Positions 5,740 through 45,536 of a stretch of DNA of 64,000 bases are shown here, piece after piece. The position numbers and the translations under genes are program-made. Numbering within the stretch: the first letter of the stretch is position 1; every line of letters begins with the position of its first letter. The stretch comes from an uncultured Ignavibacteriaceae bacterium (GTDB lineage Bacteria; Bacteroidota; Ignavibacteria; UBA10030): positions 7,630 through 71,629 of the forward strand of contig CAYYOV010000009.1 of assembly GCA_964473365.1 (NCBI GenBank). Reading direction: 5' to 3'. Under the pieces are notes generated by a model. It saw only the letters and a program-made list of their open reading frames with translations. It ran no database searches and was not told the DNA's origin.

Positions 5740-5752
5740 TGGGAGAGGACGC

Positions 5753-7496: not shown

Positions 7497-7527
7497 GGAA
7501 ACTATCCAAGGAATGGAAGTCGTGGAG

Positions 7528-9411: not shown

Positions 9412-9416
9412 CTGCC

Positions 9417-11072
9417 TCAGCGTGCCTCGTATTCACCCCACACCGACCGCAGCACATCGGAGATCTCTCCAACCGTGGCCATAGCTTGCACGGCGGCGAG
9501 GATCGGTGGCATCAGGTTCGTGGACTCCTTTGCCGCCGTCCGGACCTCGCTCAATGCTCGTTGATGCTCCGTGGTATCGCGGCGACGTTTCATGGCCGAG
9601 AGTGACGCGATCTGACGAGCGCGCACTGCGTCGTCCACCTTCAGCGTCTCGGGCGCGATCGATTCCGGTTCCTGGAACTTGTTCACTCCGACGATGACCT
9701 TGTCGCCACGCTCGATCGCCTGCTGATACTCGTAGGCGCTCGCTGCGATCTCCGTTTGCAGGAATCCCTGCTCAATGGCGCGTACTGCGCCCCCCAACGC
9801 GTCGATCCGTTCCAGGTACTCACTCGCCTTGGCTTCGATCTGGTCTGTCAACGACTCGACGTAGTACGAGCCACCCAAGGGGTCGGGTGTTTCGGTCACT
9901 CCGGACTCATACCCGAGGACCTGTTGCGTGCGCAACGCGAGGCGCGCGGCATCCGCTGTCGGCAACGCCAGCGCTTCGTCCCGGCCGTTCGTGTGGAGCG
10001 ATTGACATCCGCCGATGATCGCGGCCAATGCCTGCACCGTGACGCGCACGACGTTCGTGTCGATCTGTTGGGCCGTGAGCGTCGCCCCTCCCGTTTGGGC
10101 ATGGAAGCGAAGCCGCTGACTTTCGGGAGAAGTTGCTCCGAACCGGTCACGCATCAGTTTCGCCCACAAGCGTCGAGCCGCACGAAACTTTGCGACCTCT
10201 TCGAAGAAGTTATTGTGTGCGTTGAAGAAGAAGGAGATCTGCGGTGCGATGTCGTCGACCGCCAGCCCACGATCCACCGCTGCCTGGACGTATGACACGG
10301 CATTCGCAAGCGTGAACGCCAGTTCCTGCACTGCGGTCGAACCGGCCTCGCGGATGTGATATCCGCTGATCGAAATGGTGTTCCATTTCGGTAGTGTCCC
10401 ACGGCACCACGCCATGACATCGGTGACGAGCCGGATCGACGGACCGGGCGGATAGATGTATGTGCCGCGGGCGGCATATTCCTTGAGGATGTCGTTCTGG
10501 ACGGTTCCCGACAGTCTCCGAAGATCGGCTCCCTGCTCCTGCGCGACCGCGACATACAGCGCCAGCAACGTCGCTGCCGTTGCGTTGATCGTCATCGACG
10601 TCGTCACATCCTGTAGTCGGATCCCGTTGAACAACGTCCGCATGTCGTCGAGCGAATCGATCGCGACCCCGACCTTGCCCACCTCGCCTTCTGCCATCGC
10701 GTGATCCGAATCGTAGCCGATCTGCGTGGGAAGGTCGAACGCCACGGAGAGGCCGGTTGTGCCGCTCTTGATCAGGTAGCGATAGCGTTCGTTCGATTCC
10801 TCGGCCGTCCCAAATCCGGCGTACTGACGCATGGTCCAGAGACGGCTCCGATACATCGAAGGGTAGACGCCGCGGGTGAACGGGAATTCACCGGGGAATC
10901 CGAGCGACGCTCGGTAGGGTGTCTCATTGGGGAGATAGACCGGATCGATCGGGATGCCCGAATCGGTCACGAAGGCGGCCTTCCGCTCGCCGCCTCTCGC
11001 GAGCGATGGACCCCGCGTCTCCCGTTCCCAGCGTTCCAGGTCTTTGGCCGAGATCTTGTCGATACCGCTCAT
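9417..11072 (-). CDS. Methylmalonyl-CoA/acyl-CoA mutase, large (substrate-binding) subunit; no fused B12-binding domain
   Basis: [87 protein letters not shown]. Start 11072 or 11096. Confidence 0.93.
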
Positions 11073-18056: not shown

Positions 18057-19805
18057 TCACTGTCGGTCGTACACCTTCTCTCCGCCGATATAGGTGGCAT
18101 CCACCTTCGTCGCCAGGATCCCTTCCGGATCGTGCGCATCGACGGGCTGCGACAGCACAATAAAATCGGCGAGTTTCCCGACCGTGAGACTCCCCTTGAA
18201 GTTCTCTTCGAAAGCCGCCGTTGCTGCCCAGATCGTGAATCCCTTCAGCACCTCGGCAAGCGTCATTCGTTCCGTTGCGTACCAACCCCCTTCGAACGCG
18301 GACGGATTGACGATGCCGGCGGCGGAGAGCTCGAAGAGATCTTCCTTCAGATCGGCCGCCGAACGTGGTCTGCCCGATGCGTCTCGACGCGTCACGGCCG
18401 CATACACGCCGAGCAACGGACCAGGCTGCTCAACCGGGAAGTCTGATCCACACGGTATGATCACGCCGGTTTGCAGAAGCGATCGCCAGGCATACGCCCC
18501 CTTGATACGATCCGGTCCGAGTCGAGCCTCCGCCCAATACATGTCAGACGTACAATGCGTCGGTTGCATCGATGGTATTACGCCAAGCTTCGCGAACCGG
18601 CCGATGTCCCCCGGGAACAGCACCTGCGCATGCTCCACGCGCAACCGGTGGTCCCGCACCGCCGTCGCCTGCAATGCTCGTTCGTAGACATTCAGCACGA
18701 TCGAATTCGCTCTGTCTCCGATGGCGTGCGTGCAAACTTGAAATCCGTGCTGCAACGCCTCCGAGACCGACATCGACAGCTCCTGTTCGTTCGTCACCGT
18801 CAGTCCCCGGTTCGACGGATCATCGGAGTAAGGATCGATCAGGGCAGCGCCGCGTGAGCCGAGCGCGCCGTCGGCATACAGCTTGATGGCGCGGACCGTC
18901 AGGTGATCGCGGCCGTAGCCGATCATCGGCCCTTCACGCTTGAATCGTTCCCAGGTCGGGCCTGGACCGCCGATGGCGGCGTAGATCCGCACTTTGAGCC
19001 GCCCCGCTCCAATGAGTCGTTGGTATGCCGCCAGGTCGGACGAATCGACGCCCATGTCATGGATGCCGGTCAAGCCGAGCGACAGGCATTCTTGCTGCGC
19101 CGTGAGGATGGCCTCATCGATCTCCTCCGGTGCCGGCGGAGGCACGTACGGCGCGACGAGGAGTTCAGCATTATCGACCAGCACGCCCGTCGGTTCACCT
19201 TTGGCGTCACGAACGATCTTGCCTCCGTCCGGATCGGGGGTCGAGCGCGTGATCCCGGCGATCTCGAGGACCTTCTTATTCACCCAGAGCGCATGGCCGT
19301 CGACACGGCTGAGCACCACGGGATTTTCGGGGGCGACCTTGTCGAGCGTGTTGTGGTGCGGGAAGGTCTTGGAGGCCCAGAGGTTCTGGTTCCAGCCCCG
19401 ACCACGGATCCACTGGCCAGCAGGCGAGCGCTTCACCCGTTCGGCGACCCGTTCTGCAGCGACCTCCGAACTCGATGCGCCGAGGAGATCGACGGTCATG
19501 CGAGCAATGCCGAGCGACACGACGTGTGCATGCGCGTCGATCAAGCCAGGGAGCACGGTCTTTCCTTGAAAATCGACCTCGACCGGCGCCCGGAACTTGC
19601 GCCGGATCGTCGAGCTGCTGCCGATGCCGACGATGCGGTCATCTTTGACTGCCAAGGCCTCCGCCTCGGGCTGGCCATCATCCATCGTCAACAATCGACC
19701 ATTGACATAAATTGCGTCGGCTTCCGCCGGGAGCCACCACCAGAGCGCAGCAAGAGCGAGGATGAACACGCTTGCTGCAACGACGATCCGAGTGCGTTTG
19801 TCCAT
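18057..19805 (-). CDS. Amidohydrolase family 3 protein (YtcJ-like) with N-terminal anchor
   Basis: LPGLIDAHAH, RVDGHALW, KLYADGALGSRGAAL, HAIGDRAN, RVEHAQ, SMQPTH, GSDFPVE, GKLADFIVL. Confidence 0.9.
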   Translation of the reverse strand: MDKRTRIVVAASVFILALAALWWWLPAEADAIYVNGRLLTMDDGQPEAEALAVKDDRIVGIGSSSTIRRKFRAPVEVDFQGKTVLPGLIDAHAHVVSLGIARMTVDLLGASSSEVAAERVAERVKRSPAGQWIRGRGWNQNLWASKTFPHHNTLDKVAPENPVVLSRVDGHALWVNKKVLEIAGITRSTPDPDGGKIVRDAKGEPTGVLVDNAELLVAPYVPPPAPEEIDEAILTAQQECLSLGLTGIHDMGVDSSDLAAYQRLIGAGRLKVRIYAAIGGPGPTWERFKREGPMIGYGRDHLTVRAIKLYADGALGSRGAALIDPYSDDPSNRGLTVTNEQELSMSVSEALQHGFQVCTHAIGDRANSIVLNVYERALQATAVRDHRLRVEHAQVLFPGDIGRFAKLGVIPSMQPTHCTSDMYWAEARLGPDRIKGAYAWRSLLQTGVIIPCGSDFPVEQPGPLLGVYAAVTRRDASGRPRSAADLKEDLFELSAAGIVNPSAFEGGWYATERMTLAEVLKGFTIWAATAAFEENFKGSLTVGKLADFIVLSQPVDAHDPEGILATKVDATYIGGEKVYDRQ

Positions 19806-19847: not shown

Positions 19848-21599
<1,752 letters not shown>

Positions 21600-21801: not shown

Positions 21802-24800
21802 ATGGCAATCGAACTTCTCGACCAGATTCTCGGCCACGTCCGAAACGCTATTCATCGTCAACGGTATCCGTTGCTCGATTGGCGGATGAAGGAGGGCTTG
21901 ATTCCCGGCGCGGAACGACCCGACTACAAAGAAAAGGGTTGGACCGATATCCGCGTTCCGTTCGACTGGGGCCGGTATGATCGGACCGTCTGGTTCCGAA
22001 GTGTCTGGACCGTTCCCGATGCTTCCGTAGGGAAAGCGGTCGGCGTTCGTCTCTCCTTTCCAGAAGCGCAGCTGTACGTCAATGGTGAGCCGTTCCAGGG
22101 GCTCGACGCCAATCACTGCGAGGTCCTCCTCACGGACAGGGCCCGTCGCAATCAGAAATTCCACCTTGCGGTCGAAGCATACACCGGCCGCACCGACCAT
22201 CGGCATCAGTTCACGGTCGCAGAGTCGGTCGAGATCGACACGACAGCTCGGACGCTCTATTACGGGTTGAAACTGCTCCAGGAGTTGACGAAGACGCTTG
22301 ACCACAACGGCGAAGAGTTTGCAGCCGTCAAGGAACTCATCCGTCGCACGCTCATCTTCCTCAAGTATTTCGCCCCCGACGGCGAAGAATATCCCAATGC
22401 CATCGGACGCGCCCTCGCGTTCCTACGCACGGCGATCGGAACGGAATTCAGCACCTCGATACCCGGGCTCGTGCATCTGATCGGCCAGTCGCATATCGAT
22501 GTCGTCTGGCTTTGGACCCTTGCAGAAACGGAACGAAAGAACGGCCGCACCTTTTCGACGGTCCTGCGACTCCTCGAGCAACATCCATCCTTTGCCTATT
22601 CTCAGAGCCAGCCATTCCTGTATCAACAGGTGAAGCGGCGGCACCCGCGACTGTTCTCCGAGATCAAAACGCACATCGCGTCGGGACGCTGGGAAGCGGT
22701 CGGGCCGTCATGGGTCGAGCCGGACTGCAACATCCCGTCCGGCGAGTCCCTCGTCCGGCAGCTTGTTCACGGAAGTCGTTTCTACCAGCAGGAGTTCGAG
22801 CGTCCGTCCGAGGTCCTTTGGCTTCCCGACACGTTCGGATATACCTGGTCGTTGCCGCAGATCCTGAAAAAGGCGGGCGTGCCGTACTTCTTCACCACCA
22901 AGCTTCGCTGGAACGACACGACGACGTTCCCACATACCTCGTTCTGGTGGCAAGGGATCGATGGATCGCGGGTGCTCGCGCATGTTCCGCCTCTCGGACT
23001 GGAGGCGCTTGTCACTCCCAAAGACCTCCGAAAGACCGCGAAGGAATTCGACGACGAAGCCGAGCCCTTGCCGGTGATGCAGACCTTCGGGTACGGCGAT
23101 GGTGGCGGCGGTCCGACCACCGAGCAGGCCGAAACGGCTACGTTCCTCAGTGCCATGCCTGGGCTGCCCATGTCGCAGATCTCCACGCCGACGACGTTCT
23201 TCAAGGACCTCGAGACTCGGTCGGAAGGATTGCCGGTCTGGACCAAAGAACTCTATCTGGAGAAGCACCGCGGAACGTACACGACACATGGGCGGCTGAA
23301 GAAGCTCCATCGAGGCGCCGAGCGGGCCCTCTACACGGCCGAACTTGCTGCCGTGCTTCGAGCCACGTTGCCCGGTTTCGCCCCCGTTCCGTACCCATCG
23401 AGGGAATTGGATGCGCTCTGGAAGTCGCTTCTCACGAACCAGTTCCACGACATTCTCCCGGGGACAGCGATCAAGGATGCGATGGATGAGGCATATGCCG
23501 ACGTCGATCGTATCCGAAGCTCGGCCGACTCAATGACTGTGAAGACGTTGTCCGGTCTTCTGAAGAAGCCGGCGTCAAAAGATCCAGCGACGTACACCGC
23601 GTTCAATCCCCTCGCATTCACGCGGGATGCCTATGTCGAGGTCGTTGTCGCGGGCACCGCGGCCGATTGGACGGCACACACGACCGAAGGCGGAAGACTG
23701 GACACGCAGATCGTCGAGCGTTCGAAGAATCAAGCGCGTCTCCTCGTCTATCTCCCCCATGTTCCACCGCTCGGTTGCGTCGCGTTCACGGTGACTCCGT
23801 CCGAGAAGGCCCCAGCCACACCCGGAACAGGATGGCGGTTCGCACTTCGGACTGCGGAAACGCCCCGATTGCGGCTGCGCTTCGATAACAAGGGTGGGAT
23901 CAGCTCGATCTACGACAAGACTGTTCGGAAGGAGTTTGTCCAGAAGGGAAAACGCGCAAACGCCCTCATGACGGCGCGAGACCTGCCGAAGGAGTGGGAG
24001 GCATGGGATCTCGAGGGGGACTTTGACCGCAGGCGGACGGACCTTTTTGCCTTCAAGGGGGCAAAAGTGGTTGAGCAAGGGCCCCTGCGTGCCACCATCC
24101 GGCAGGAGTACAAAACGGAGAATGGCTCATCGCTGACACAGCTGATCAAGCTGTATCATCGATCGCCGCGAATGGACGTCGAAACGCATGTGAAATGGAA
24201 GGAACACCACACGCTCTTGAAGGTGGCGTTCCCTGTGGCTGCCCGCGCGTCTGCAGCGACCTACGAGATCCAGTTCGGCGCAGTGGAGCGGGCGTCCCGG
24301 TCGAAAGACCCCGCCGACAAGGCGAAGTTCGAGGTCCCCGCCCAGCAATGGGCTGCCGTGGGCGACAGCAAGCTTGGCGTTGCGATCCTGAATGATTCGA
24401 AATACGGGTACGACTGCCGAGACAATCACCTGCGCCTCACGTTGCTCCGGTCTCCCCGGTATCCACATCCGGTCAGCCCGCAGCTCCAGACGGATACCCA
24501 CTGGACCGACGTTGGCGAACACGATATGACATACGCGTTCCTACCCTACACAGGGGACTGGAGGTCCGCCGGTGTTGTCTCTGAGGCACGATCGCTCAAC
24601 GTCCCGGTCGTGGTCCTCCCTGGAGCCCCCTTCAAGTCGATCCCGTCGTTTGTGACCATCAACAAAGCGAACATCGCCGTCACCGCGGTGAAGCCGGCTG
24701 AGGACGCTGACGGAGTGATCGTACGGATGTACGAATCCTCCGGCACGGCGACCGACGCCACCCTGACATTCGGACGATCCCCGGCCTCGTGCGAAGAGAC

Positions 24801-24921
24801 CGATCTCCTGGAACGGCTCGTCAAGGCCATGCCGGTCAAGAGCGGCAAGCTCCCGCTCCGGTTCAAGCCCTTCGAGATCAAGACGGTGCGGGTGCGATTC
24901 GCCGCCCGCAAGAAGAAGTGA
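21802..24921 (+). CDS. GH38 alpha-mannosidase (cytoplasmic; no signal peptide seen)
   Basis: HLIGQSHIDVVWLW, EPDCNIPSGESLVRQ, WLPDTFGY (nucleophile Asp), YLEKHRGTYTT, NQFHDILPG, LRLTLLRSP, PFEIKT. Confidence 0.93.
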   Translation: MAIELLDQILGHVRNAIHRQRYPLLDWRMKEGLIPGAERPDYKEKGWTDIRVPFDWGRYDRTVWFRSVWTVPDASVGKAVGVRLSFPEAQLYVNGEPFQGLDANHCEVLLTDRARRNQKFHLAVEAYTGRTDHRHQFTVAESVEIDTTARTLYYGLKLLQELTKTLDHNGEEFAAVKELIRRTLIFLKYFAPDGEEYPNAIGRALAFLRTAIGTEFSTSIPGLVHLIGQSHIDVVWLWTLAETERKNGRTFSTVLRLLEQHPSFAYSQSQPFLYQQVKRRHPRLFSEIKTHIASGRWEAVGPSWVEPDCNIPSGESLVRQLVHGSRFYQQEFERPSEVLWLPDTFGYTWSLPQILKKAGVPYFFTTKLRWNDTTTFPHTSFWWQGIDGSRVLAHVPPLGLEALVTPKDLRKTAKEFDDEAEPLPVMQTFGYGDGGGGPTTEQAETATFLSAMPGLPMSQISTPTTFFKDLETRSEGLPVWTKELYLEKHRGTYTTHGRLKKLHRGAERALYTAELAAVLRATLPGFAPVPYPSRELDALWKSLLTNQFHDILPGTAIKDAMDEAYADVDRIRSSADSMTVKTLSGLLKKPASKDPATYTAFNPLAFTRDAYVEVVVAGTAADWTAHTTEGGRLDTQIVERSKNQARLLVYLPHVPPLGCVAFTVTPSEKAPATPGTGWRFALRTAETPRLRLRFDNKGGISSIYDKTVRKEFVQKGKRANALMTARDLPKEWEAWDLEGDFDRRRTDLFAFKGAKVVEQGPLRATIRQEYKTENGSSLTQLIKLYHRSPRMDVETHVKWKEHHTLLKVAFPVAARASAATYEIQFGAVERASRSKDPADKAKFEVPAQQWAAVGDSKLGVAILNDSKYGYDCRDNHLRLTLLRSPRYPHPVSPQLQTDTHWTDVGEHDMTYAFLPYTGDWRSAGVVSEARSLNVPVVVLPGAPFKSIPSFVTINKANIAVTAVKPAEDADGVIVRMYESSGTATDATLTFGRSPASCEETDLLERLVKAMPVKSGKLPLRFKPFEIKTVRVRFAARKKK

Positions 24922-25601
24922 ACGTGGTCTCGCTCATCCCTCGAGGCCTCATCGTTTCCTGTCAGGCCGAAGACGACAGTCCCTTCAACGCACCGCCGTT
25001 CATTGCCGCCTTTGCCCGGTCCGCCGAACTTGGTGGGGCAATCGCCCTTCGTTTGCGCGACATCGACAATGTAGTGGCTGTGCGGAAGCATGTTCGACTT
25101 CCGATCATCGGCATCACGAAGGGCGCGTATGCTGATGGGAGCGTGCTGGTAACGCCGAGCCGGGATGACGTCGCACAATTGTTCGCTTCCGGAGCCGATC
25201 TCGTCGCGGCGGATGTGACCGATCGAACCGGGCCGGACGGCATCCATCGGCTCGAGTGGTTCCGGAGTGTTCGGCGCGAGTTTGCACAACCGTTAATGGC
25301 GGACGTCGCGACCTACGACGAAGGGATCCGCGCCGCTGAGGCGGGCGCTGACCTTGTTGCTACAACGTTGGCGGGCTACACACCCTCGACCGCACGATCT
25401 CGAAGGGATGTGCCTGACTTTGAGCTGATCGAACGGCTCGCGAAAGACCTGCCTGGAAAGGTGGTTGCCGAGGGAAGGGTCTGGACGCCGGAACAGGCCG
25501 CGCTTGCGTTGCGCCTTGGTGCCGTGGCCGTCGTCGTTGGGACAGCGATCACAAGACCGATTGACATCGTAAAGCGATTCGTGTCATCGCTGAACCGCTG
25601 A
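24918..25601 (+). CDS. nanE: N-acetylmannosamine-6-phosphate 2-epimerase
   Basis: GLIVSCQA, PIIGITK (catalytic Lys), LMADVAT, ATTLAGYT, VAEGR, VVVGTAITRP. GTGA overlap with the GH38 stop. Confidence 0.93.
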   Translation: MNVVSLIPRGLIVSCQAEDDSPFNAPPFIAAFARSAELGGAIALRLRDIDNVVAVRKHVRLPIIGITKGAYADGSVLVTPSRDDVAQLFASGADLVAADVTDRTGPDGIHRLEWFRSVRREFAQPLMADVATYDEGIRAAEAGADLVATTLAGYTPSTARSRRDVPDFELIERLAKDLPGKVVAEGRVWTPEQAALALRLGAVAVVVGTAITRPIDIVKRFVSSLNR

Positions 25602-27614
25602 CCGCTCGAAGACCATCGCGGCAGCGCCGAGCAGTCCCGCATCCTCAAGGTCTGAGAACAGGACCTTCGCTCCCCCCCGCTGCACCTTCATGGCGGTCTC
25701 TTCGTATCGCTCCTGCAACGCATCGAAGTAGATCGCTCCGCTCTTCAAGACGCTCCCGCCCAGCACGACCGTATCCGGGTTCAACACGTTCACAAGGCTC
25801 GCCAAGGCCGCCCCGAGCGCAGCGCCACCATCTCGGAGGACCTGTTGCGCCGGTCCGTTCCCGCCCGCCGCTTGCCTCGCGACTTCATCCGCCGACCAGT
25901 CGTAGCCTGCGGCTTTCGCCCGCCTCGCAATTCCAGAACCGGAAGCATACAGTTCAACACAGCCTGCCCCGCCGCAGGAACATCTGGGACCGTCGGCGTC
26001 GACGCTGATGTGACCGATCTCCCCCGCCGCGTTCTCGGCCCCGCGCACGAGTTGGCCATTGACCAGAAGACCACCCCCGATGCCCGTTCCCACGCGAACG
26101 ATCAGCGCGTGCGTTGCACCGCCTGCCTTTCCAAACCGCACTTCAGCCATCGCCGCACAATGTCCATCATTGTCGACCCACGCAGGCAAGCCAATCTCTC
26201 GCTCGATGATCATCGCTAATGGCACGTCTGCCCAGCCGCTCAGCAATGCCGTCGAATCGAGGATGACGCCGTTCTCATGATCGACACGGCCTCCCGTGCT
26301 CACTCCGACACCACGGACGCGACGTTGCCCGGCATTCCTGGCCGCGCGACGGACGAGTGCAAGAAGCGCGACCTCGATCTCTTCGCGTCCGCCGGGAGTC
26401 GGGACCGCTTCGCGTGCCTCGATGGTCCCCTGCATGGTCACTACGCCTGCACGCAGATGCGTGCCCCCAAGATCGACTGCGACTGCCACGTCACCCTGTG
26501 ATTCCTGGACGACATCGGCTCCGGCCGGAGGGATCGAAGGCTTGATCTGATAGTCGCCCTTCACGAAGTGATAAATGTCCTCATAGAATTCCCGTTCGCG
26601 CGGATCGCTGTGCCCGATCATTTTCCGAAGCGAGCCAACCCCTTGGAAGTGTGCACATGCTGCATCGCGCATGTAGCCGTACGTTACGCCACCATTGAGA
26701 TAGTCACGGAATCGAGAGTGCCGTTCTGATGTGATCGCGATCGGCTCGTCCAATTCGAGGTAGTACTCGATCTCGATCCCGGCATAGCGCTGACGCGCCG
26801 CACGGGCTGCTCCCTCGATCGTCTTTCCCGATCGATAGAACATGTAGTTTGGCTGGAGGAAGGCCAGATCGAAATAGTACGCGCGGTAGTCATCGAGCAA
26901 ATGGACGTTGTATGTCGACCAGAACGGGATCCACGAGGTCTTGAGTCCATGGCGATGAACGTGTTCCCGCAACTCTTTCAGGAGCCAATGGTCATCCACC
27001 TCCCAACTCCGGTAGACCGTCTCGAACATCCAATAGACGCCGAGGAGGTGGACGTGCTTCCATGTGCCTTCGTTCCATCGACGCACAATCTCATCCACGA
27101 ACCACTTTTCGGCCGCCAGACGTTGTTGCGTGGCCTTCATCAGGTTCTGTGTCCCGATCCCGAAGTCGAGTTCTGGTCCGTCCGGCACCAGCCGCCCCCA
27201 TCGGCGTTGCGAAATGTGCGGATAGGGCAGCATCAGGATCACATTTCGCTGGTGCTCCGGAAACGAGCCGATCTCTTGTCCACAGCGCTCGATCGTCTGA
27301 TCGAGCGTGGCGACCGCTCCCGTAGGCCCCAGATAGAACTCAAGCAATGCTTCCCAGTCCTGTTTCGACGCCGGATGAGGAGACACCATTGCAAAGAAGT
27401 CCCCTTCCCCCGACATCGAGGTCCCCAGGTTCACATCCGCAGACAGATCTCGACCCGCAGCCGCTTTCACATTCAGGAAGAGAAAAGAATCGAATAACCA
27501 GTCGTCAGATCGACTGTTGGCCCCCTGATGCGCGACGTAGTAGCGAAGGTCGTCTTCTGTCCATGGGCGCTCGACTCCGCCATACATCAACATGAGATGG
27601 CGGAGATGGTTCAT
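25584..27614 (-). CDS. Fusion of DUF4855-like (putative glycoside hydrolase-like TIM barrel) and ROK sugar kinase (ManNAc-kinase-like)
   Basis: The N-terminal ~360 aa has DUF4855-like motifs (LMYGG…RPWT, DWLFDSFLFL, WIPFW, FDLAFLQPNY, GIEIE). The C-terminal ~300 aa is a ROK kinase (AVDLGGT, VDNDG, GTGIGGG, GEIGH…CSCGGAGCVE). One continuous frame. Confidence 0.8.
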   Translation of the reverse strand: MNHLRHLMLMYGGVERPWTEDDLRYYVAHQGANSRSDDWLFDSFLFLNVKAAAGRDLSADVNLGTSMSGEGDFFAMVSPHPASKQDWEALLEFYLGPTGAVATLDQTIERCGQEIGSFPEHQRNVILMLPYPHISQRRWGRLVPDGPELDFGIGTQNLMKATQQRLAAEKWFVDEIVRRWNEGTWKHVHLLGVYWMFETVYRSWEVDDHWLLKELREHVHRHGLKTSWIPFWSTYNVHLLDDYRAYYFDLAFLQPNYMFYRSGKTIEGAARAARQRYAGIEIEYYLELDEPIAITSERHSRFRDYLNGGVTYGYMRDAACAHFQGVGSLRKMIGHSDPREREFYEDIYHFVKGDYQIKPSIPPAGADVVQESQGDVAVAVDLGGTHLRAGVVTMQGTIEAREAVPTPGGREEIEVALLALVRRAARNAGQRRVRGVGVSTGGRVDHENGVILDSTALLSGWADVPLAMIIEREIGLPAWVDNDGHCAAMAEVRFGKAGGATHALIVRVGTGIGGGLLVNGQLVRGAENAAGEIGHISVDADGPRCSCGGAGCVELYASGSGIARRAKAAGYDWSADEVARQAAGGNGPAQQVLRDGGAALGAALASLVNVLNPDTVVLGGSVLKSGAIYFDALQERYEETAMKVQRGGAKVLFSDLEDAGLLGAAAMVFERSAVQR

Positions 27615-27712: not shown

Positions 27713-29899
27713 CTACTTTGGCGCCACGATGAGCACCGCCGGTTCTGCAGAGGGATGTTCTTCCAACTCCGCCTTCACCAGCGTGAGCATCTGTTCCTTC
27801 GTTGCGACGCCGCTCAGATCGACCACCCTGCCTGAGAGCAAGAGGAAGACGTCTGGCACGAGGCCTCCTGCATCGCCAAACGAGGTCATGGATTCGGCCA
27901 AACTGTCCAATCGGGAGCTCGCAGTTCGAACCGTCACGTGTTCGACCGCGGCATTCGACAGCTTCAGTCGGACCACTCCATCGGTCCCAACGACTCGAAC
28001 CGGTCGACGCTCCGACGCGATCCATCCGAAGAACCGCCGTGTGCGCTGGTATCCTTGAAACACGCGGAGAAATGCCGTCGAACCCACCTGATCGATGGGC
28101 GCGTCCAGAGGTCCCATTGAAACGTTTGCGATGCGCCGGATCTCATCGTCGGGCATGTGACGAGCCATGAGGTCGCGCGTACGAAGTTCGGGCACGCCCG
28201 TCGCCACCGCGATCAGCCGCTTTTGTTTTGGGTCGACCTCGACCCGCACTTCGATCGAGTCGGCCGAGGCCCCCATTGCTGCTACTGACGCTGCCGCATC
28301 CGTACGGATCCGGAGGATATCCGCCTCCGTGGGTGAGATCACACTTCGTTCGATCGTGTCGCGGATCATGCCCAATGCCGCCCCGATCGCAGAGATCACC
28401 TCAGCATGGTTAGAGATCGCATAGGGAAGATCACTCTGCCGAGCTGTCTCCGGGACGACGGCCTCTGCACCTCCGCCCCCCCCGACAAGCGACAAGAGCC
28501 CGCGGTCCAGGTCATATTCGCTGATGAATTGCTCAACGACCCGGGAGACTTTCCTGGACGCGGTCTCAAGAACGGTCTTTGCCCAAAGGGACGGTTCCTG
28601 GCCCACCACGGGGCGCAACAGGTCCGCCAGTCGGTTCACGGTCTCCTTGTTGCCCTTTGCGTAGCCCGAAGGCGTCTCCGACAGGTTCAACGCATCCGTG
28701 GTGGTGATGGCCAGCGCCGGGGCCGAACCGTCTGCCGGGACAAGCGCAGCATAATCATCCGGGTCGCCCGGCCTTGGACGAACGCTTCGGGCCGAAACGT
28801 TGGCGAGCCGCTGTGGAGGGCTGAACGAAGGATACAGCATACCGGCGATATGCGCGCTGCGCGGCCCGACGTCAACGACCTTCCCATGGTGCCACCGAAC
28901 CATCGAGCCTCCGCCGATGCCGACGGTACGAATGTCGAGCGTCTTCACGAACAACCGATGTCCCCCGACCTCCGACGTGCGCACCATCGGACGCCCGTTC
29001 TTGATGATGGAGATATCCGTGCTGGTGCCGCCGACTTCGAGGAAGAGACCGTCGGACACGCGCGCATACATCAACGCGGCTGCCACTCCGGCCGCCGGAC
29101 CCGACAGCATCGTCAGGATCGGACGGCGCCGCATTTCCTGGATGTCCATGATGCCGCCGTCGCTTCGCATGATCATCAGCGGCGTCGTGATGCCCGCCTT
29201 TCGCACGGACCGCTCGGTCATGTTCGCCGCTTCAAGCATCTTTGGTAACATCGACGCATTGATGACCGCGGTTCGGGTCCGAACGCGCAGTCCGTAGAGC
29301 TGCGAGATATCTGCAGCGGCAGTCACAAGAAGTCCCTGTGCCTGAAGGAGCGCTGCCGCCTCGTGCTCACGCGCGGGGTCATCCACCCCGAATGCCTCAC
29401 TGATGACGAAGACCTCGGCACCTTCTGACCGAAGTTCCTGAGCAATTCGTATAACGGCCTCCGCGGGGACTCCTTCCGTCACATCAACGTAGCGATGGCA
29501 GGTCTCGAGATACTTGCCGGGAGCGAGTTCGATGCCTCCCACCCGCGTCTGACGTCGAGCCAACCAGCCGTCTCCCTTTCGGCCGAGGCCTATGATTCCG
29601 ACCCGTGCCACGTCCCCCTCGAGGAGTGCATTGGTCGCTTGAGTCGTGCTATGTGCAATGAGCGAGACCTCTGACGGCCGAACCTTGGCTGTTCTGAGCA
29701 AAGCCTCCATCGCCTCGACGACGCCTCGCGCAACCCCCTCCTTCGCAGCATGCGTCGTTGGAACAACAGCCGTCCCCAAAAGTCTCAAGGACGACGCTTC
29801 GAGGGCCACGGCGTGCGTGAACGTTCCCCCAACGTCAATGCCGATCTTGACCTGGCGCCTCGAGCGCTTCTGTTTCGCTATGGAAGGTCTTTTAGCCAT
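27713..29899 (-). CDS. Hydantoinase/oxoprolinase (subunit A-like, ASKHA fold) family protein
   Basis: IGIDVGGTFTH, HSTTQATNALLE, LMIMRSDGG, TMLSGPAAGV, EVGGTSTDI, IGIGGGS-like (TVGIGGGS), VISAIGAA. Confidence 0.88.
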   Translation of the reverse strand: MAKRPSIAKQKRSRRQVKIGIDVGGTFTHAVALEASSLRLLGTAVVPTTHAAKEGVARGVVEAMEALLRTAKVRPSEVSLIAHSTTQATNALLEGDVARVGIIGLGRKGDGWLARRQTRVGGIELAPGKYLETCHRYVDVTEGVPAEAVIRIAQELRSEGAEVFVISEAFGVDDPAREHEAAALLQAQGLLVTAAADISQLYGLRVRTRTAVINASMLPKMLEAANMTERSVRKAGITTPLMIMRSDGGIMDIQEMRRRPILTMLSGPAAGVAAALMYARVSDGLFLEVGGTSTDISIIKNGRPMVRTSEVGGHRLFVKTLDIRTVGIGGGSMVRWHHGKVVDVGPRSAHIAGMLYPSFSPPQRLANVSARSVRPRPGDPDDYAALVPADGSAPALAITTTDALNLSETPSGYAKGNKETVNRLADLLRPVVGQEPSLWAKTVLETASRKVSRVVEQFISEYDLDRGLLSLVGGGGGAEAVVPETARQSDLPYAISNHAEVISAIGAALGMIRDTIERSVISPTEADILRIRTDAAASVAAMGASADSIEVRVEVDPKQKRLIAVATGVPELRTRDLMARHMPDDEIRRIANVSMGPLDAPIDQVGSTAFLRVFQGYQRTRRFFGWIASERRPVRVVGTDGVVRLKLSNAAVEHVTVRTASSRLDSLAESMTSFGDAGGLVPDVFLLLSGRVVDLSGVATKEQMLTLVKAELEEHPSAEPAVLIVAPK

Positions 29900-29912
29900 G
29901 GGGTACTGTTAG

Positions 29913-29983
29913 CCGCAGAGGCCGCAACGGGGCGTTGAACGATCCGTCACGCTTCGTCCTTGCGCTCTGTGCGTTCTCTGCGG
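29913..29983. repeat. Intergenic REP-like inverted repeat (CCGCAGAG…CTCTGCGG)
   Basis: 8-bp inverted arms at 29913-29920 and 29976-29983, with an internal related GCTCTGTGCG unit. Confidence 0.35.
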
Positions 29984-29994
29984 TTCAGTCCTCG

Positions 29995-31482
29995 TCAATA
30001 GAACAACGCACCTGCAATGCACAGCCCGAGCAGGGCAGCCATCCACGCGTACGGCAGCGTACGCCACATGATCTCGTTCACATCGATGCGGACCTCGTTG
30101 GCCACCCAGACATTCTGCGTATTCGTGGGATCGCTGATGCCCTGGATGATCCCAAGCGACATCAGAATACCCATGACCGCACCGGCGGGGACTCCGGTCG
30201 CCAGCAGGATACCTCCGACGCCATAGCCGAGCCCCCACACATTCAATGGGCCACGATACAAGGCGAGCGGTCCGAGCAACGTGAACAGGACGACGTAATT
30301 CCATCCCGACGTCGGGACGATCAGCGACAACAGGGGCTTCATGTCGCTCATGACAGGCCACTCTGTGACGCCGGCGACTGCCGCATCAGCAAACCAGGAG
30401 CGACCAGGGCCTGTCGTCGTGGGTCCGAGGATGGCGCTCAGCAGCATGCCGATCCCGAGCATGAGGACGACGGCGGGGATCACGCTCGAGCTTCCTTCGA
30501 TCACGGAACGGGTGACCATGTTGACCGACCCCTTGCGCAAAGTCACAAGGATGCCGTAGACGAACGCTGCAATAAACGCTGCGACGTATGGGATCCCGAA
30601 CAGGAGGATCAACAGGAGGGGCACAAGCGGAGTGGCGTATGCCCATGCTGAAACGCGTGTCTCCTGGACAGCTGAACGCGAACGCCAATACCTCCACACG
30701 CGTGAGACCACGCCATAGACGAGGACCGCCGCGAGCAACCAGCGCAACGGTTCGGCAAGCCACGTCCACGCCGTTCCGTCGACCATGAGGGCCAGTATTC
30801 CCACGCCCCCTGCCACCACGGCCATCACGGCCAGCGATCGCCGTATGGTTCGAAACCGGACGGAGCCGCCCCGAAGGAGTTCGATCGTGAGGAACGCGAC
30901 CGCCACCAGCGCCGTCAGCCCGAAGAGCGTTGCAGCGTACGACGACACGACGGAATCCTCCAACCGAAGGACAGATCGATAGACCGCCCAGTTGTTAGCG
31001 TTCAACAATCCGCCCAGGCTGATCCCGACGAGAAGCACGCCGGCTGCCACATGTTCCCGCATTCCCAACGAGAGCAGGATCGGCAGGATCACAGCTCCGA
31101 CCATGATCACGGCCCCGAGTCCGCCGATCGTCGTGAAGAGCAAGGTCACGATCGACAACATCACCAATGCCACAAGCAGCGGATTATCACCGGCGAACTC
31201 AGCTCCGCGCCGGACGATCTGCTCGGCAACGCCTGATCGCTGCAGCAATTGGCTGACCATTCCGCCAAAGAACGAGATCACCATGGGGTCTGCCAGGCGA
31301 AGGGCGCCGTCCGCCAGGATCGCCGAGCTCACGTCCACCCAAGTCAGATGTCCGCTGAAGACCTGGACAACCCCTATCCCGAATGCCATCATCGGAAGGG
31401 CAAGCACCGCCGGCAGCTTCCTGAGGAACATCAGAGCTGCCGCGATGACGAACAGGAGAAGGATCAGGAGCGCATTCACCAT
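29995..31482 (-). CDS. Ion-transporter (IT) superfamily permease (citrate transporter/GntP-like)
   Basis: About 13 TM segments, with LLQRSGVAEQIVRRGAEFAGD, LLFTTIGGLGAVIMVG and ISDPTNTQNVW. Confidence 0.75.
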   Translation of the reverse strand: MVNALLILLLFVIAAALMFLRKLPAVLALPMMAFGIGVVQVFSGHLTWVDVSSAILADGALRLADPMVISFFGGMVSQLLQRSGVAEQIVRRGAEFAGDNPLLVALVMLSIVTLLFTTIGGLGAVIMVGAVILPILLSLGMREHVAAGVLLVGISLGGLLNANNWAVYRSVLRLEDSVVSSYAATLFGLTALVAVAFLTIELLRGGSVRFRTIRRSLAVMAVVAGGVGILALMVDGTAWTWLAEPLRWLLAAVLVYGVVSRVWRYWRSRSAVQETRVSAWAYATPLVPLLLILLFGIPYVAAFIAAFVYGILVTLRKGSVNMVTRSVIEGSSSVIPAVVLMLGIGMLLSAILGPTTTGPGRSWFADAAVAGVTEWPVMSDMKPLLSLIVPTSGWNYVVLFTLLGPLALYRGPLNVWGLGYGVGGILLATGVPAGAVMGILMSLGIIQGISDPTNTQNVWVANEVRIDVNEIMWRTLPYAWMAALLGLCIAGALFY

Positions 31483-31488
31483 GGCAGG

Positions 31489-32880
31489 TCAGAGCCTCGC
31501 CCCGAGTCGTTTGAGCTCCGCACGCAATGCAATGCCATCGACCTTTCTCAACGGGATCTTCGCACTCAGAGACATCGCCGCTGCCACTGCAGCCGCTTCC
31601 CCCATTGCTCGGCAGTTCGACTGGATCCGGATAGAACTTTGCGCCTCGAACGAGGCGGAGAGACACCGACCCGCCACCAATACGCCCTCTACGCCGAGAG
31701 GGACCAGACATCGATACGGCACCTCATGATATTCGCCAGGCGGCAATTTCGTCATGCCGGCCCGATCATCACTCGGGTCCCGATGGACATCCAACGGGTA
31801 GTTGTTCCGGAGTATGGCATCCGGGAATTTCGCCGCTCCCAGCACTTCTTCGGTCGTCAGATAGTATTCTCCCCTGATGCGACGTGATTCCCGCACGCCC
31901 ACCATCGGCGCCGACATCACAAGATACGCCCGCTCGCAGCCCGGCAGGTACTTCCGGCAGAAGGTCACATAGCGCCCGATGATCTCTCGCCCCTTGATCT
32001 GGGCCTGGGTCAAATGCCGCACGTCCGTTCCATCCACATCTTCTCGGATCCGGGGACAATTGAACGCGAGTTCATTCGGCCGGCCCGCCATCGAGAACAC
32101 CTGGAAGTAGTCCCCGTCGCGCTCTTTTAGCACGCCATTCGTCACAGCCTGTCGAAAGATCGGTTCCAACGACCATCCTTTTCCCCATACCATGGCGGTG
32201 TGGACGAGCAACACATCCGAGCCTTCTGCCACCTCCATCACGTCGTGTCGCCCAAGCGAACGGAGGAATTCCGCGAACCGCTTCAGATCGACGTTGCCGA
32301 GATGGAACCTGACCGAGAACGGCTGATTCCGGCCGGTCATCGGATCGCCCTGCTCGACCTTCACACCGGCCCTGTATGCGACATCCGCGTCACCCGAGGC
32401 ATCGATGGTACGCTTCGCCTTGATGAAGCCGCGACCGGACTTGCTCAGCACGACAACGCCTGTGATCGCCCCACTGTCCACGACGGAATCCTCAAACATC
32501 GTGTAGTATTGGATCTCCGAGCCCGCTTCAATGACCATCTGCTCGAGGACGTACTTGAGCGATTCAGGATTGAACCAGCCACGGTTGCCGTCCCTCCACA
32601 CGCCAGACTCCTGGACGGCGTTGAGCTTCCGGTTGATCTCCAGATCGATACCGCCATTCAACGGCTCCCCTCCGATCTGATTTGGCATCATGGGAGTCAC
32701 GAGGGCGCCGGTCTGAGTTCCGCCCAGGGCCCCAAATTGCTCGACAACCAGCGTCCGCAACCCCTGGCGGCCTCCAGCGATCGCCGCTACGGCACCTGAC
32801 GTACCACCGCCCACGACGAGCACGTCGACGTCAGCAATGGTTGGAATGCGTTGATCACGGATGTCTGACAAAGCGAGCAT
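31489..32880 (-). CDS. FAD-dependent oxidoreductase (PF12831-like)
   Basis: DVLVVGGGTSGAVAAIA…LVVEQFGALGG Rossmann motif, IDASGDADVA, GVRESRRIRGEY, YEVP-like HEVPYRCLVP, LVAGRCLSA. Confidence 0.88.
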   Translation of the reverse strand: MLALSDIRDQRIPTIADVDVLVVGGGTSGAVAAIAGGRQGLRTLVVEQFGALGGTQTGALVTPMMPNQIGGEPLNGGIDLEINRKLNAVQESGVWRDGNRGWFNPESLKYVLEQMVIEAGSEIQYYTMFEDSVVDSGAITGVVVLSKSGRGFIKAKRTIDASGDADVAYRAGVKVEQGDPMTGRNQPFSVRFHLGNVDLKRFAEFLRSLGRHDVMEVAEGSDVLLVHTAMVWGKGWSLEPIFRQAVTNGVLKERDGDYFQVFSMAGRPNELAFNCPRIREDVDGTDVRHLTQAQIKGREIIGRYVTFCRKYLPGCERAYLVMSAPMVGVRESRRIRGEYYLTTEEVLGAAKFPDAILRNNYPLDVHRDPSDDRAGMTKLPPGEYHEVPYRCLVPLGVEGVLVAGRCLSASFEAQSSIRIQSNCRAMGEAAAVAAAMSLSAKIPLRKVDGIALRAELKRLGARL

Positions 32881-41984: not shown

Positions 41985-43982
41985 TTACCGCACGTAGAGT
42001 GCCCGCTGTACCCGGCGGCGCTCCAGTAGTGCACGTCCGGAGACCTCTGTGACGCGAAGTTCGAAGAAGTAGACGCCCGAAGCGAGCGCCCGTGGTTCCC
42101 ACGTCCTCCGATGCGACCCCGCATCCATCCGTCCTTCGACGAGTGTTTCCACCAAACGTCCCACGACGTCATAGACCGTCAGTCGGACATCAGCCGCATC
42201 GCTGAGATCGAACGCAATCGTTGTCATCGGATTGAACGGATTGGGGTACACGGGATGGAGGGTGAATGTTGTCGGTGGCGCGATCGCCATCTCCCTCACG
42301 GCCGTCGTACCTCCCGGAGACAATCGACGATTCCGAAGCAGCATCAATTCGTCGCCGACGACGTTCTTTCCTGCGCCGATGCCCGCGTTCGTGAGGGTCA
42401 CCACGACGCGCGGCCCCCCCGCTGGGAGCATGACGTCCCCCAGTTTCGTCCATCCGGCATTTTCAGCGGCAGCCTGGTCGATGGTCACGGTCCGGAGCGA
42501 GGATGACGTATCATGCAATCGGTACGTTGCTGTCGGCGTGAGCGCATTGAGCCCCGTTGGAATGTACGCATAGAGCTCATAGACGCCCTCCTCCGGAACA
42601 CTTGCCAGGTAGTGCATGGTGTCTGCCCCGGCTGCGTCGGCGTAGAAGACCGAGCCGTTCCAGCCGGAGACGAAATTGACCCCAACAAAACCGGTCCGGG
42701 TGGCGGATGAATCCTTCGCGAAGGTCGGGGCCGAACGCCAGCCCGCCTGTCGGTGAGGAGGTGTGACGTACGTTGGGTAGACCTGGTTGCGCAACGGCAC
42801 CATGTAGCCCGCATCTCGCAGATCGTTGTAGTACCACCACGCGTGGCCCTTCAATCCTGCATTGCGGCTGACCTGGACCAGATTGACGCCTTCGGTGAGC
42901 GAGAACAGGGTGCCGCTCGGTTTGATGGCGATGCCGGCATTCACCCTCTGCTGCGAGGCGCTGCTGAGGCCATAGAGCGCTGACGGGATGTATCCCTGCA
43001 GGACAGAGGAAGGCTGATACATCTGCACTTGCGCCGCGTCTAGTTTCCCCAGTTCTAACCAAGCCTTCCAATCCTGGAGGACATTGTCGTAGGCTGGATA
43101 CGACCCCAGACCGGAGGCGTAATGGCTGGGGGCGTTCGAGACGATCACGTTCGGGTTCACCGCTTTGATCGAGTCGTACACCGCAGCGTGGAACGTGACC
43201 AGTTGGTCCGCCCGCCAACGCTTCCAGGCCGCATTCGTGCCATCGATCGGAGGAGCGCTGCCGGTCGCGGCGGTGTACTTGACCACCGATGCGCTGTCGT
43301 AGCCGAAGTTCACATTGGGATAGCGGATCCGATCCAGCTCGATACCGTCCACATCATACCGACGGGCGATCTCTTCATGCAGTTCGAGCAGAAAGGACCG
43401 GGCATCGTCATTGTTGTGCGCCAGCCAGTAGAAGAAGATCCCGCCTTCTGGATTGCCGATCAAGTCGTTGCCTGAGGCGTCCCTCCCCAGCCACGACGGG
43501 CGACGGTCGAACAATGGGCCTTTCGGAAGACCCGGCAACGAGTAGCCCGACCACCATCCCGCGAAGCCGTATTCCATCCAGGCCTCGATCTCGAGCCCGT
43601 TGCGGTGCGCTTCGGCGATCGCCTCTTGCAGGATGTCCCTATCGCCCGCGGCCGGATCCGTGTAGTAGCCGGTCTCCCGGAAGAAGACATCGCTGCGGAA
43701 GAGCGGGAAGCCTCGGCTCCAGGCATTGAAGTACACGACGTTGAAGTTGGACGCCGCGATCGTGTCCATGGTCCGCGCGATCTCGGCCTTAGTCCAGAAG
43801 CTTCCTCCTGTCCTCGGCGTGACCCAGATCCCACGTAGTTCTTGCGCCGGGAGCGGGAGCGAAACAAGCAGAAGTGCGAGAATCGCGCTCAGACCGGCGC
43901 CTGCGCGCATAGCGCGTGGCATGCGAACGCGTGCACGCATTCGGTGCGTTCGGAGGCCAGTCGAGTGTGCGAGGTTCATCAT
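41985..43982 (-). CDS. Glycoside hydrolase-like family 10 (GHL10/DUF187) protein with golvesin/xanthan-lyase-CBD-like domain and T9SS CTD
   Basis: ELRGIWVT, FNVVYFNAW, EAHRNGLEIEAWMEYG, YDVDGIELDRIRYP, QDWKAW, QVQMY. Accessory domain GVYELYAY…GWTKLG…VVGD. CTD YPNPFNPMT. True start may be downstream (~43909). Confidence 0.85.
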   Translation of the reverse strand: MMNLAHSTGLRTHRMRARVRMPRAMRAGAGLSAILALLLVSLPLPAQELRGIWVTPRTGGSFWTKAEIARTMDTIAASNFNVVYFNAWSRGFPLFRSDVFFRETGYYTDPAAGDRDILQEAIAEAHRNGLEIEAWMEYGFAGWWSGYSLPGLPKGPLFDRRPSWLGRDASGNDLIGNPEGGIFFYWLAHNNDDARSFLLELHEEIARRYDVDGIELDRIRYPNVNFGYDSASVVKYTAATGSAPPIDGTNAAWKRWRADQLVTFHAAVYDSIKAVNPNVIVSNAPSHYASGLGSYPAYDNVLQDWKAWLELGKLDAAQVQMYQPSSVLQGYIPSALYGLSSASQQRVNAGIAIKPSGTLFSLTEGVNLVQVSRNAGLKGHAWWYYNDLRDAGYMVPLRNQVYPTYVTPPHRQAGWRSAPTFAKDSSATRTGFVGVNFVSGWNGSVFYADAAGADTMHYLASVPEEGVYELYAYIPTGLNALTPTATYRLHDTSSSLRTVTIDQAAAENAGWTKLGDVMLPAGGPRVVVTLTNAGIGAGKNVVGDELMLLRNRRLSPGGTTAVREMAIAPPTTFTLHPVYPNPFNPMTTIAFDLSDAADVRLTVYDVVGRLVETLVEGRMDAGSHRRTWEPRALASGVYFFELRVTEVSGRALLERRRVQRALYVR

Positions 43983-45392: not shown

Positions 45393-45536
45393 CAATCACT
45401 CCAATACCCCACTACTCCACTGCTCCACTACCCCACTACTCCACTACTCCACTACCCCACTACTCCATTACTCCACTACCCATTACCCCATCACTCCACT
45501 ACCCCATTACTCCATTCCTCCACTCCCCCCATTACT
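45393..45536. repeat. Degenerate 8-bp tandem repeat array (~17 units, consensus CCACTAC[T/C])
   Basis: ccaatacc ccactact ccactgct ccactacc ccactact ccactact ccactacc ccactact ccattact ccactacc … It begins at the stop codon of the upstream minus-strand gene. Confidence 0.9.

Follow-up and report, generated by a model that had tools for sequence, protein, structure and literature searches.

Why should an Ignavibacteriaceae bacterium carry a sugar kinase that resembles one half of an animal enzyme, and what could such a kinase be doing there? GNE is the enzyme that limits the rate of sialic-acid synthesis in animals, and its C-terminal domain is an N-acetylmannosamine (ManNAc) kinase of the ROK type. 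We have analysed a stretch of 64,000 nucleotides, referred to here as the window, from an uncultured Ignavibacteriaceae bacterium (contig CAYYOV010000009.1), in which one minus-strand open reading frame (ORF) joins an N-terminal DUF4855 domain to a C-terminal ROK kinase domain. A preliminary description of this DNA had proposed a GNE-like ManNAc kinase at positions 25584-26495 that might mark a bacterial sister clade of the animal kinase. Here we report that, judged by its sequence, this kinase domain belongs to a distinct clade of bacterial ROK proteins that falls with GNE, apart from E. coli NanK and the ROK glucokinases, and that this clade is the closest relative found here of the animal GNE kinase domain and the best candidate for its sister group. 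The fusion is probably a cytoplasmic bifunctional protein in which a GNE-subtype ManNAc kinase feeds NanE and DUF4855 supplies the ManNAc. ManNAc would most likely be converted to ManNAc-6-phosphate (ManNAc-6-P) and passed on to NanE, in a salvage route that lacks a neighbouring sialate lyase.

Among all PDB sequences searched with phmmer, the top match of the ROK half was the human GNE ManNAc-kinase domain (hMNK; E 2.2e-58, 201 bits, residues 9-303), in agreement with the likeness to GNE first noticed. Thermus glucokinase was next best at 141 bits, the second to fourth matches all being glucokinases, and E. coli NanK reached 105 bits. ROK membership is clear from PF00480 (205.2 bits versus a cut-off of 22.9 bits, residues 388-678) and from the presence of all the defining motifs, namely DxGxT, the catalytic Asp, ExGH and the zinc motif CxCGxxGCx(E/D). 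The kinase scored 162.5 bits with the ROK glucokinase model TIGR00744 (ROK_glcA_fam; cut-off 260.35), 142.2 bits with the NanK equivalog model NF047821 (cut-off 450) and 152 bits with the NanK subfamily model NF003461 (cut-off 283). Because these scores fall below all curated NCBIfam cut-offs, the protein is neither a canonical NanK nor a ROK glucokinase. Its N-terminal half matches PF16147 (DUF4855) at 206.8 bits against a cut-off of 27, over model positions 2-312 of 313, and Pfam returned no match to PF02350 (Epimerase_2) anywhere in the fusion protein. Since DUF4855 occupies the N-terminus and PF02350 is missing, the protein is not a GNE orthologue; the kinase domain alone is of the GNE type. 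In the PDB search, in HMM scores and in distance trees, with GNE sampled from vertebrates, that domain is nearer to the kinase domain of GNE than to every other characterised ROK.

The interval originally described corresponds to the kinase half (residues 384-686) and not to the whole protein, whose first 358 residues form the DUF4855 domain. The fusion ORF begins with an ATG preceded, six bases upstream, by a GGAG ribosome-binding site, and its N-terminal sequence has no signal peptide. The domain junction is covered without indels by contigs from two independent bioreactor-metagenome runs. A tblastn panel with a reading-frame check found DUF4855 and ROK as one open frame in 16 GTDB genomes (related loci carry L numbers: L015-L018, L020-L023, L025, L028-L030, L034, L036, L040 and L051) belonging to the Ignavibacteriota, Bacteroidota, Kryptoniota and Gloeomargaritales, and the two domains are likewise joined in frame in two metagenome loci (L005 and L006). 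These 18 other in-frame loci, together with the junction contigs of the two runs, rule out an assembly chimera as the source of the fusion. A search of the gene index gave no record of the exact window protein; its closest fusion relatives are L015, an Ignavibacteriaceae metagenome-assembled genome (MAG), and L016, with DUF4855 halves 81-84% identical and ROK halves 63-67% identical. In the trees described below, fused ROKs branch among unfused ones, a pattern suggestive of repeated fusion or fission or of exchange between phyla.

Relatives of the kinase were sought by a word-indexed search of 5.8 billion proteins and by an HMMER scan of 1.84 billion representative proteins. In the word-indexed search, the best relatives of the ROK half, 43-46% identical, were stand-alone ROKs of about 317 residues from Bacteroidota MAGs and Gloeomargarita; the next rank was held by vertebrate GNE (37-40% identity, 193-208 bits), followed by generic ROKs at 190 bits or less. 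The exhaustive HMMER scan gave the same order after tandem ROK-ROK proteins had been split into domains. When one genome per GTDB species was scanned with the alignment of the clade, the signatures STGG[RQ]V[DN] and [DE]NDGxC were recovered in 28 genomes, both strict patterns occurring in 23 of the 28 and only one of them in the other 5. These genomes comprise Ignavibacteriota, Bacteroidota including Chitinophagales, Kryptoniota, Gloeomargaritales and one MAG labelled Brocadiaceae, and both signatures were absent from the ROKs of Armatimonadota, Paenibacillus, Cohnella, Acidobacteriota and Enterococcus recovered by the same scan. Clade members are about 41-50% identical to one another and come from bioreactors, sediment and freshwater.

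All five motifs quoted in the preliminary description are present in the minus-strand ORF (Table 1), and the human motifs given beside them (GVGISTGGRV, HSTKLIQEW, PVWVDNDGNCAALAE, DGPDCSCGSHGCIEAYASG and VSDLVDPALLGAASMV) proved correct in a residue-by-residue alignment to PDB 3eo3/2yhy/2yhw. As markers of specificity, the STGGR loop, DST and NDGxC stood, whereas the zinc and C-terminal LLGAA motifs are found in ordinary ROK glucokinases as well. Residues were counted column by column over 281 ROK domains, including 46 clade members and 227 other ROKs. Window residues D391, G394, T395, R398, G452, R453, T465, N492, D493, E542, H545, C555, C557, C562 and E564 are the equivalents of hMNK D413, G416, T417, R420, G476, R477, T489, N516, D517, E566, H569, C579, C581, C586 and E588, all of which are kept. 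E542-I-G-H545 aligns with hMNK E566 and H569, and N492-D493 with N516-D517; the zinc motif reads C555-S-C557-G-G-A-G-C562-V-E564 (for definitions of ExGH and the zinc motif, see PMC5458393 and PMC2742894). Every ManNAc ligand listed for hMNK, that is N516, D517, R477, E566, H569 and E588 (PMC5458393, PMC2742894), is thus conserved in the window, which lends support to the ManNAc specificity put forward earlier. The core sugar ligands N, D, E, H and E are common to all ROK kinases (PMC2742894), and three bacterial NanK structures (Fn, Ec and Lm NanK) have Gln, Ile or Tyr in the place of Arg477 (PMC5458393).

The first two of the five motifs fall within hMNK residues 475-498, a mobile loop that is disordered in the apo form (PMC2742894), and in the window this substrate loop bears Arg453 (=R477) and Thr465 (=T489). 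At the Arg477 position, 37 of the 46 clade members have R and other ROKs Q, P, L or V; Thr489 is kept in 44/46 (other ROKs A, S, T or P) and Gly475 in 42/46. Gly518 (window Gly494) occurs in 45/46 clade members, other ROKs having mostly Ala or Val, and Cys520 (window Cys496) in all 46. A one-residue insertion at 488 is common to the clade and GNE and is a gap in 144 of the 227 other ROKs. The corresponding residues of E. coli NanK are Ile (R477), Pro (T489), Ala (G518) and Ala (C520).

Genomic context points the same way with respect to substrate. The substrate of NanE is ManNAc-6-P. In the window, as in L003, L005, L015-L019, L021-L030, L034-L036 and L095, a clade ROK has NanE beside it or close by, and clade members adjoin NanE in more than 20 independent loci, a linkage so constant that it looks obligatory and further backing for ManNAc specificity; stand-alone clade ROKs stand immediately upstream of NanE in L003, L019, L024, L026, L027 and L035. 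The locus of P0003, the bacterial protein closest to hMNK, contains NanE, GH38 and two NagB-like genes. We consider it unlikely that the ROK domain is instead a general hexose or N-acetylglucosamine (GlcNAc) kinase, glucokinase-like or RokA-like, whose resemblance to GNE would be uninformative on substrate. Such a kinase would accord with ROK_glcA_fam as the best NCBIfam model, with the glucokinases that hold second to fourth place in the PDB search, with the five core ligands shared by all ROK kinases, and with the GH38 mannosidase of the locus, which would release mannose; yet the glucokinase score lies far under the 260-bit cut-off, Arg477, Thr489 and the 475-498 loop are kept in the window and absent from generic ROKs, and it is NanE, needing ManNAc-6-P, that is linked to clade ROKs in so many loci.

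The relationship between the clade and GNE was examined in distance trees. In a 199-taxon neighbour-joining (NJ) tree with Kimura distances, GNE grouped with the window protein, three other fusions and the stand-alone bacterial members (80% bootstrap support) and lay inside the bacterial clade beside a Bacteroidota protein (52%). In the 281-taxon trees, three long-branch Enterococcus sequences were treated as rogue taxa and bootstraps were computed with and without them. With the rogues out, the sister group of GNE in the best tree was made up of 42-43 clade members and free of intruders; no sequence from outside the clade entered this sister group in 89% of bootstraps with Kimura, 92% with scoredist and 86-93% with gamma-corrected distances, and in 71% when the rogues were kept. 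Glucokinases fell outside the clade in all trees. The bacterial sister clade proposed at the outset was recovered under all three distance corrections, and neither the NJ trees nor the hidden Markov model (HMM) scores grouped the kinase with glucokinases or NanK far from GNE.

An HMM built only from the bacterial clade gave vertebrate GNE 325-336 bits and a generic 170-sequence ROK HMM gave 284-298, so that a clade model built without GNE favours GNE by about 38 bits; for E. coli NanK the order is reversed (159 bits with the clade HMM, 207 with the generic one). With hMNK as query against the 281-sequence set, the 33 best non-GNE matches were all clade members (202-274 bits); the window kinase scored 196 bits and E. 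coli NanK 62. Among bacterial proteins, hMNK is matched most closely by the Bacteroidota MAG ROK P0003 (identical with the protein of L031), with 46% identity against 39% for the window kinase. From these sequence comparisons we infer that the clade and the GNE kinase domain would descend from a specific common ancestor, whichever the direction of any transfer.

Convergence on ManNAc by unrelated lineages within ROK would be an improbable explanation of the likeness. ManNAc kinases have arisen more than once, as E. coli-type NanK shows (27% identity to hMNK, grouping elsewhere), the specific motifs sit in substrate-contact loops and the trees are distance trees only, whereas the likeness extends across the whole domain (39-46% identity, 196-274 bits), includes the common one-residue insertion, is detected by the clade HMM built without GNE, and carries bootstraps of 71-93% over three distance corrections. 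Capture of an animal GNE kinase domain by bacteria is more improbable still: rooting is uncertain and the 199-taxon tree has GNE inside the bacterial clade (52%), but the clade shows greater depth and diversity than the vertebrate GNE set (its members are about 41-50% identical and span Ignavibacteriota, Bacteroidota, Kryptoniota and Gloeomargaritales), its habitats are bioreactor, sediment and freshwater and not animal hosts, GNE is sister to it and not ancestral in the larger trees, and ROK is otherwise a bacterial family in which GNE is the sole human protein (PMC2742894).

If the kinase acts on ManNAc, the remaining question is where the ManNAc would come from, and here the fused domain is of interest. 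The AlphaFold2 model of the DUF4855 half (predicted local distance difference test score 92.9) is a (beta/alpha)8 barrel, and a PDB sequence search found no relative of this half. The top barrels returned by Foldseek were those of GH20, GH18 and GH84 (N-acetylhexosaminidases and chitinases), together with TrpA and psicose epimerase. Forty columns are invariant among 36 DUF4855 homologues; the invariant acidic residues include E208 after strand 4, E291 and E293 in strand 7, and a D217-D218-H219 triad. These features of the modelled barrel are compatible with a glycosidase, short of proof. The searched literature contained no paper on DUF4855 function or on DUF4855::ROK fusions, with one incidental table entry for DUF4855, and the searchable literature contained no mention of an N-acetylmannosaminidase. 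Kinship of DUF4855 with a GHL10 protein of the window was considered and rejected (hhalign probability 0.1).

Most DUF4855 proteins are single-domain and of about 370 residues, and their gene neighbourhoods are informative. In Paenibacillus lactis DSM 15596, one cluster contains an RpiR regulator, a ROK, an ABC transporter, NanE and a secreted protein with signal peptide, discoidin, DUF4855 and FIMAH domains; by analogy, this is the Firmicute nan layout with DUF4855 in the place of the sialidase. In L008, the FAD (flavin adenine dinucleotide) oxidoreductase, permease, hydantoinase-A-like ATPase and DUF4855 cassette described below is followed by a GlcNAc 2-epimerase (PF07221), and no ROK plus NanE pair is present. 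ROK plus NanE, and an AGE-type epimerase, are the two known routes of ManNAc into GlcNAc metabolism. The presence of either route downstream of DUF4855 suggests that DUF4855 delivers ManNAc. A more specific proposal, which we advance tentatively and regard as doubtful, is that DUF4855 might be a previously unrecognised ManNAc-liberating, N-acetylmannosaminidase-like glycosidase, and the fusion a GNE analogue from the ROK lineage that gave animals their GNE kinase.

In the pathway that we propose, a glycan fragment would be imported through the SusC-like, permease and sodium:solute symporter family (SSF) systems of the locus, GH38 would strip alpha-mannose, and DUF4855 would process the imported fragment and free ManNAc. 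The fused kinase would phosphorylate ManNAc at O6 to give ManNAc-6-P, which the convergently encoded NanE would turn into GlcNAc-6-P for the amino-sugar pathway. A homologue of NanA, the sialate lyase, was found neither in the 64 kb of the window nor in any of about 90 related loci; the window ORFs that were scanned gave no GH33 sialidase domain, and neither NeuB/NANS nor a CMP-sialate synthetase was found in the 64 kb. With no NanA and no GH33, a canonical nan (sialic acid) operon is ruled out.

Several points weigh against the proposal of a GNE-subtype ManNAc kinase supplied by DUF4855. The best NCBIfam model for the kinase domain is that of the ROK glucokinase subfamily, at a score under its cut-off. 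The trees are NJ (distance) trees only, GNE was sampled from vertebrates only, and the sequence set was gathered by likeness to the window, so that a lineage nearer to GNE and less like the window could be missed. In the 281-taxon scoredist tree the exact full clade had 68% support, and in the 281-taxon Kimura tree the three Enterococcus sequences were drawn to GNE with 17% support. Foldseek matches of the DUF4855 model were to generic TIM barrels only, with template-modelling (TM) scores of at most 0.41, and because these structural matches are weak the chemistry of DUF4855 is a guess; the activities of both the clade kinases and DUF4855 are predictions. L009, the closest syntenic relative with a stand-alone DUF4855, has no ROK or NanE within 10 kb, and in Gloeomargarita lithophora (L001, L007) DUF4855 and ROK are on different contigs, far apart and unlinked; on the evidence of these two, coupling of DUF4855 with ROK is frequent and not obligatory. 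One Gloeomargaritaceae MAG (L020) has the in-frame DUF4855::ROK fusion.

Comparison with known systems helps to delimit what is shared. With GNE, the window protein has in common the ROK subtype (39% identity over about 295 residues), the ATP, catalytic, zinc and ManNAc-contact residues, the R477, T489, G518 and C520 positions with the 488 insertion, and a kinase placed as the C-terminal domain of a two-domain protein. It differs in its N-terminal domain, a DUF4855 TIM barrel in place of the UDP-GlcNAc (uridine diphosphate-GlcNAc) 2-epimerase of GNE (PF02350), in its catabolic context of NanE, glycosidases and transporters, and in missing an insert of some 13 residues that follows the ASG motif in GNE. 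As a whole, we infer by analogy that the fusion would resemble GNE in function without being its homologue, joining a ManNAc producer to a ManNAc kinase; the parallel is one of analogy only, because the N-terminal domains have unrelated folds. E. coli NanK (PDB 2AA4) is likewise a ROK zinc kinase whose gene is linked to nanE, with the same predicted reaction and next step, and differs in being 33% identical to the window kinase and 27% to hMNK. Unlike the canonical nan operon, the window and related loci have NanE and no nanA or nanT partners. The ROK glucokinases of Thermus (3VOV), Enterococcus (2QM1) and Streptomyces (3VGK) share the fold, DxGxT, ExGH, CxCGxxGCxE and LLGAA, and differ in the 475-498 loop and the ND-G-x-C signature. 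Other DUF4855 proteins (BT0442; the Paenibacillus lactis discoidin-DUF4855-FIMAH protein) belong to the same Pfam family as the N-terminal half, some of them also linked to ROK, NanE or GlcNAc 2-epimerase; the window domain is cytoplasmic and fused to a kinase, whereas most others are single-domain or secreted with carbohydrate-binding modules.

The kind of enzyme is thus a known one, a predicted GNE-type ManNAc kinase, and what is new is its fusion and pathway context. An ancestral eukaryote has been proposed already to have had a 'Man-kinase' (Petit et al., PMC5811610 and its supplement), and in the literature searched, discussion of the origin of GNE is mainly about the epimerase half. That a ROK domain should have a bacterial origin is expected; the novelty lies in the specific clade, in the recurrent fusion and in the DUF4855 lead. 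A well-populated clade with the GNE-specific substrate loop provides a concrete outgroup to the kinase half of GNE and may be the lineage that donated it, and its soluble bacterial homologues, at 39-46% identity, could serve structure-function work on residues affected in GNE myopathy. The recurrent fusion and operon linkage are the first functional lead found for DUF4855, a family also present in gut Bacteroides glycan loci, and they point to ManNAc salvage that does not begin at sialic-acid lyase. If DUF4855 does free ManNAc, the bacterial source of half of GNE would be identified and a sialate-lyase-independent ManNAc salvage in environmental Bacteroidota and Ignavibacteriota would be defined. 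The fusion to DUF4855, the conserved catabolic locus and the closer bacterial relative of hMNK elsewhere (46%) all go beyond the preliminary description.

Table 1. Features of the DUF4855::ROK fusion gene, its motifs and its neighbours in the window.
Feature	Residues	Window positions	Strand	Basis
Whole ORF, DUF4855::ROK fusion, 686 aa		25584-27644	minus	ORF list, Pfam
DUF4855 domain, (beta/alpha)8 TIM barrel	17-358	26571-27596	minus	PF16147, E 5.6e-61
Short interdomain linker	359-387	26484-26570	minus	gap between two Pfam envelopes
ROK sugar-kinase domain, GNE-type	388-678	25611-26483	minus	PF00480, E 2e-60
DxGxT ATP-binding motif, D391-L-G-G-T395		26460-26474	minus	definition PMC5458393
Substrate loop GVGVSTGGRV ... 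DSTALLSGW, clade-specific, = hMNK 475-498		26232-26312	minus	
GVGVSTGGRV	445-454	26283-26312	minus	
DSTALLSGW	463-471	26232-26258	minus	
PAWVDNDGHCAAMAE, catalytic loop with Asn492, Asp493 (=N516, D517)	487-501	26142-26186	minus	
ExGH (E542, H545) and zinc CxCGxxGCxE (C555, C557, C562, E564), generic ROK		25938-26027	minus	
DGPRCSCGGAGCVELYASG, zinc motif region	551-569	25938-25994	minus	
FSDLEDAGLLGAAAMV, C-terminal motif	663-678	25611-25658	minus	
NanE, ManNAc-6-phosphate 2-epimerase		24918-25601	plus	PF04131, E 4e-52
GH38 alpha-mannosidase, 1039 aa, no signal peptide		21802-24921	plus	four GH38 Pfam domains
Hydantoinase-A/oxoprolinase-like ASKHA ATPase, 728 aa		27713-29899	minus	PF01968, PF05378
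Membrane permease, CitMHS/GntP-like, 495 aa		29995-31482	minus	homologue names, synteny
FAD-dependent oxidoreductase, first cassette gene		31489-32880	minus	PF12831, E 7.5e-106
Sodium:solute (SSF) symporter		19848-21599	minus	Pfam
Amidohydro_3 amidohydrolase		18057-19805	minus	Pfam

The genes around the fusion are tightly packed and run in the order FAD oxidoreductase, permease, hydantoinase-A-like ATPase and DUF4855::ROK, with NanE and GH38 on the opposite strand and the SSF symporter and Amidohydro_3 protein beyond them (Table 1); L015 and L016 keep this full gene order. NanE (NCBIfam PRK01130, 241.8 bits against a 189-bit cut-off) is convergent with the fusion gene, the 3' ends overlapping by 18 nt (25584-25601), and its likely GTG start shares bases with the GH38 stop codon (GTGA, 24918-24921). 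GH38 is syntenic in L005, L009, L015-L018, L021, L025 and L029, and the SSF symporter and Amidohydro_3 protein, 71-87% identical, in L009, L015, L016 and L017. The hydantoinase-A-like ATPase lies directly upstream of the fusion in the same operon and has weak PDB matches to N-methylhydantoinase and 5-oxoprolinase. The 495-residue permease has no Pfam match at E up to 10; its relatives bear the names 'citrate transporter' or 'gluconate symporter-like', and PF03600 is present in a few of them.

The cassette of FAD oxidoreductase, 495-residue permease, hydantoinase-A-like ATPase and DUF4855 (window 27713-32880, minus strand, for the first three genes) is conserved across phyla, occurring also in L005, L008, L009, L015-L018, L021, L022, L025, L029, L030 and L036. 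Its hydantoinase-A-like ATPase has no HyuB partner and sits beside an anion-type permease.

Within the fusion gene, the ROK half is far less conserved with respect to L015 and L016 than the DUF4855 half or the neighbouring genes, the latter being 75-87% identical. At window positions 25656-25998, in the C-terminal part of the ROK domain, the Logan contigs of both bioreactor runs are split into pieces of 86-160 bases, with the flanks on long contigs; this fragmentation may reflect strain-level variation in the segment.

Two further arrangements were seen among the related loci. In L003, L004 and L019, a TonB receptor and two or three secreted DUF4434 plus discoidin proteins with type IX secretion system (T9SS) tails accompany a weak AGE-like gene, an MFS transporter, a ROK that is the best stand-alone homologue, and NanE; another uncharacterised GH-like family here takes the place of DUF4855. 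In L095 (= L031, a Bacteroidota MAG), positions 1150-10724, the ROK closest to hMNK leads a run of genes for an acyl-carrier protein, an ADP-forming acyl-CoA ligase-like protein, two NagB-like proteins, DUF4954, an HMGL-like protein and NanE; for sugar salvage this is an unusual combination.

Elsewhere in the window, a second ROK protein (43979-45202, minus strand) has an N-terminal winged helix and is 30% identical to the kinase domain; the zinc-motif cysteines were not seen in its pairwise alignment, and it is probably the repressor of the locus. Two GHL10 (PF02638) proteins are encoded nearby on the minus strand (45532-47919 and 41985-43982), one fused to an NAGPA phosphodiester-glycosidase ('uncovering enzyme'-like) domain and the other with Golvesin_C and a T9SS sorting tail. 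In B. thetaiotaomicron, the DUF4855 gene BT0442 lies near two GHL10 genes and a DUF5009 gene (PMC10434189). Finally, a two-cohesin protein (53568-56156, minus strand) adjoins a beta-helix protein of 1846 residues (56233-61773, minus strand) that carries a dockerin domain and a FlgD-Ig tail, in an organism otherwise of FCB (Fibrobacterota-Chlorobiota-Bacteroidota) type with T9SS and SusC-like genes; the two are a possible cohesin-dockerin pair outside the clostridia.

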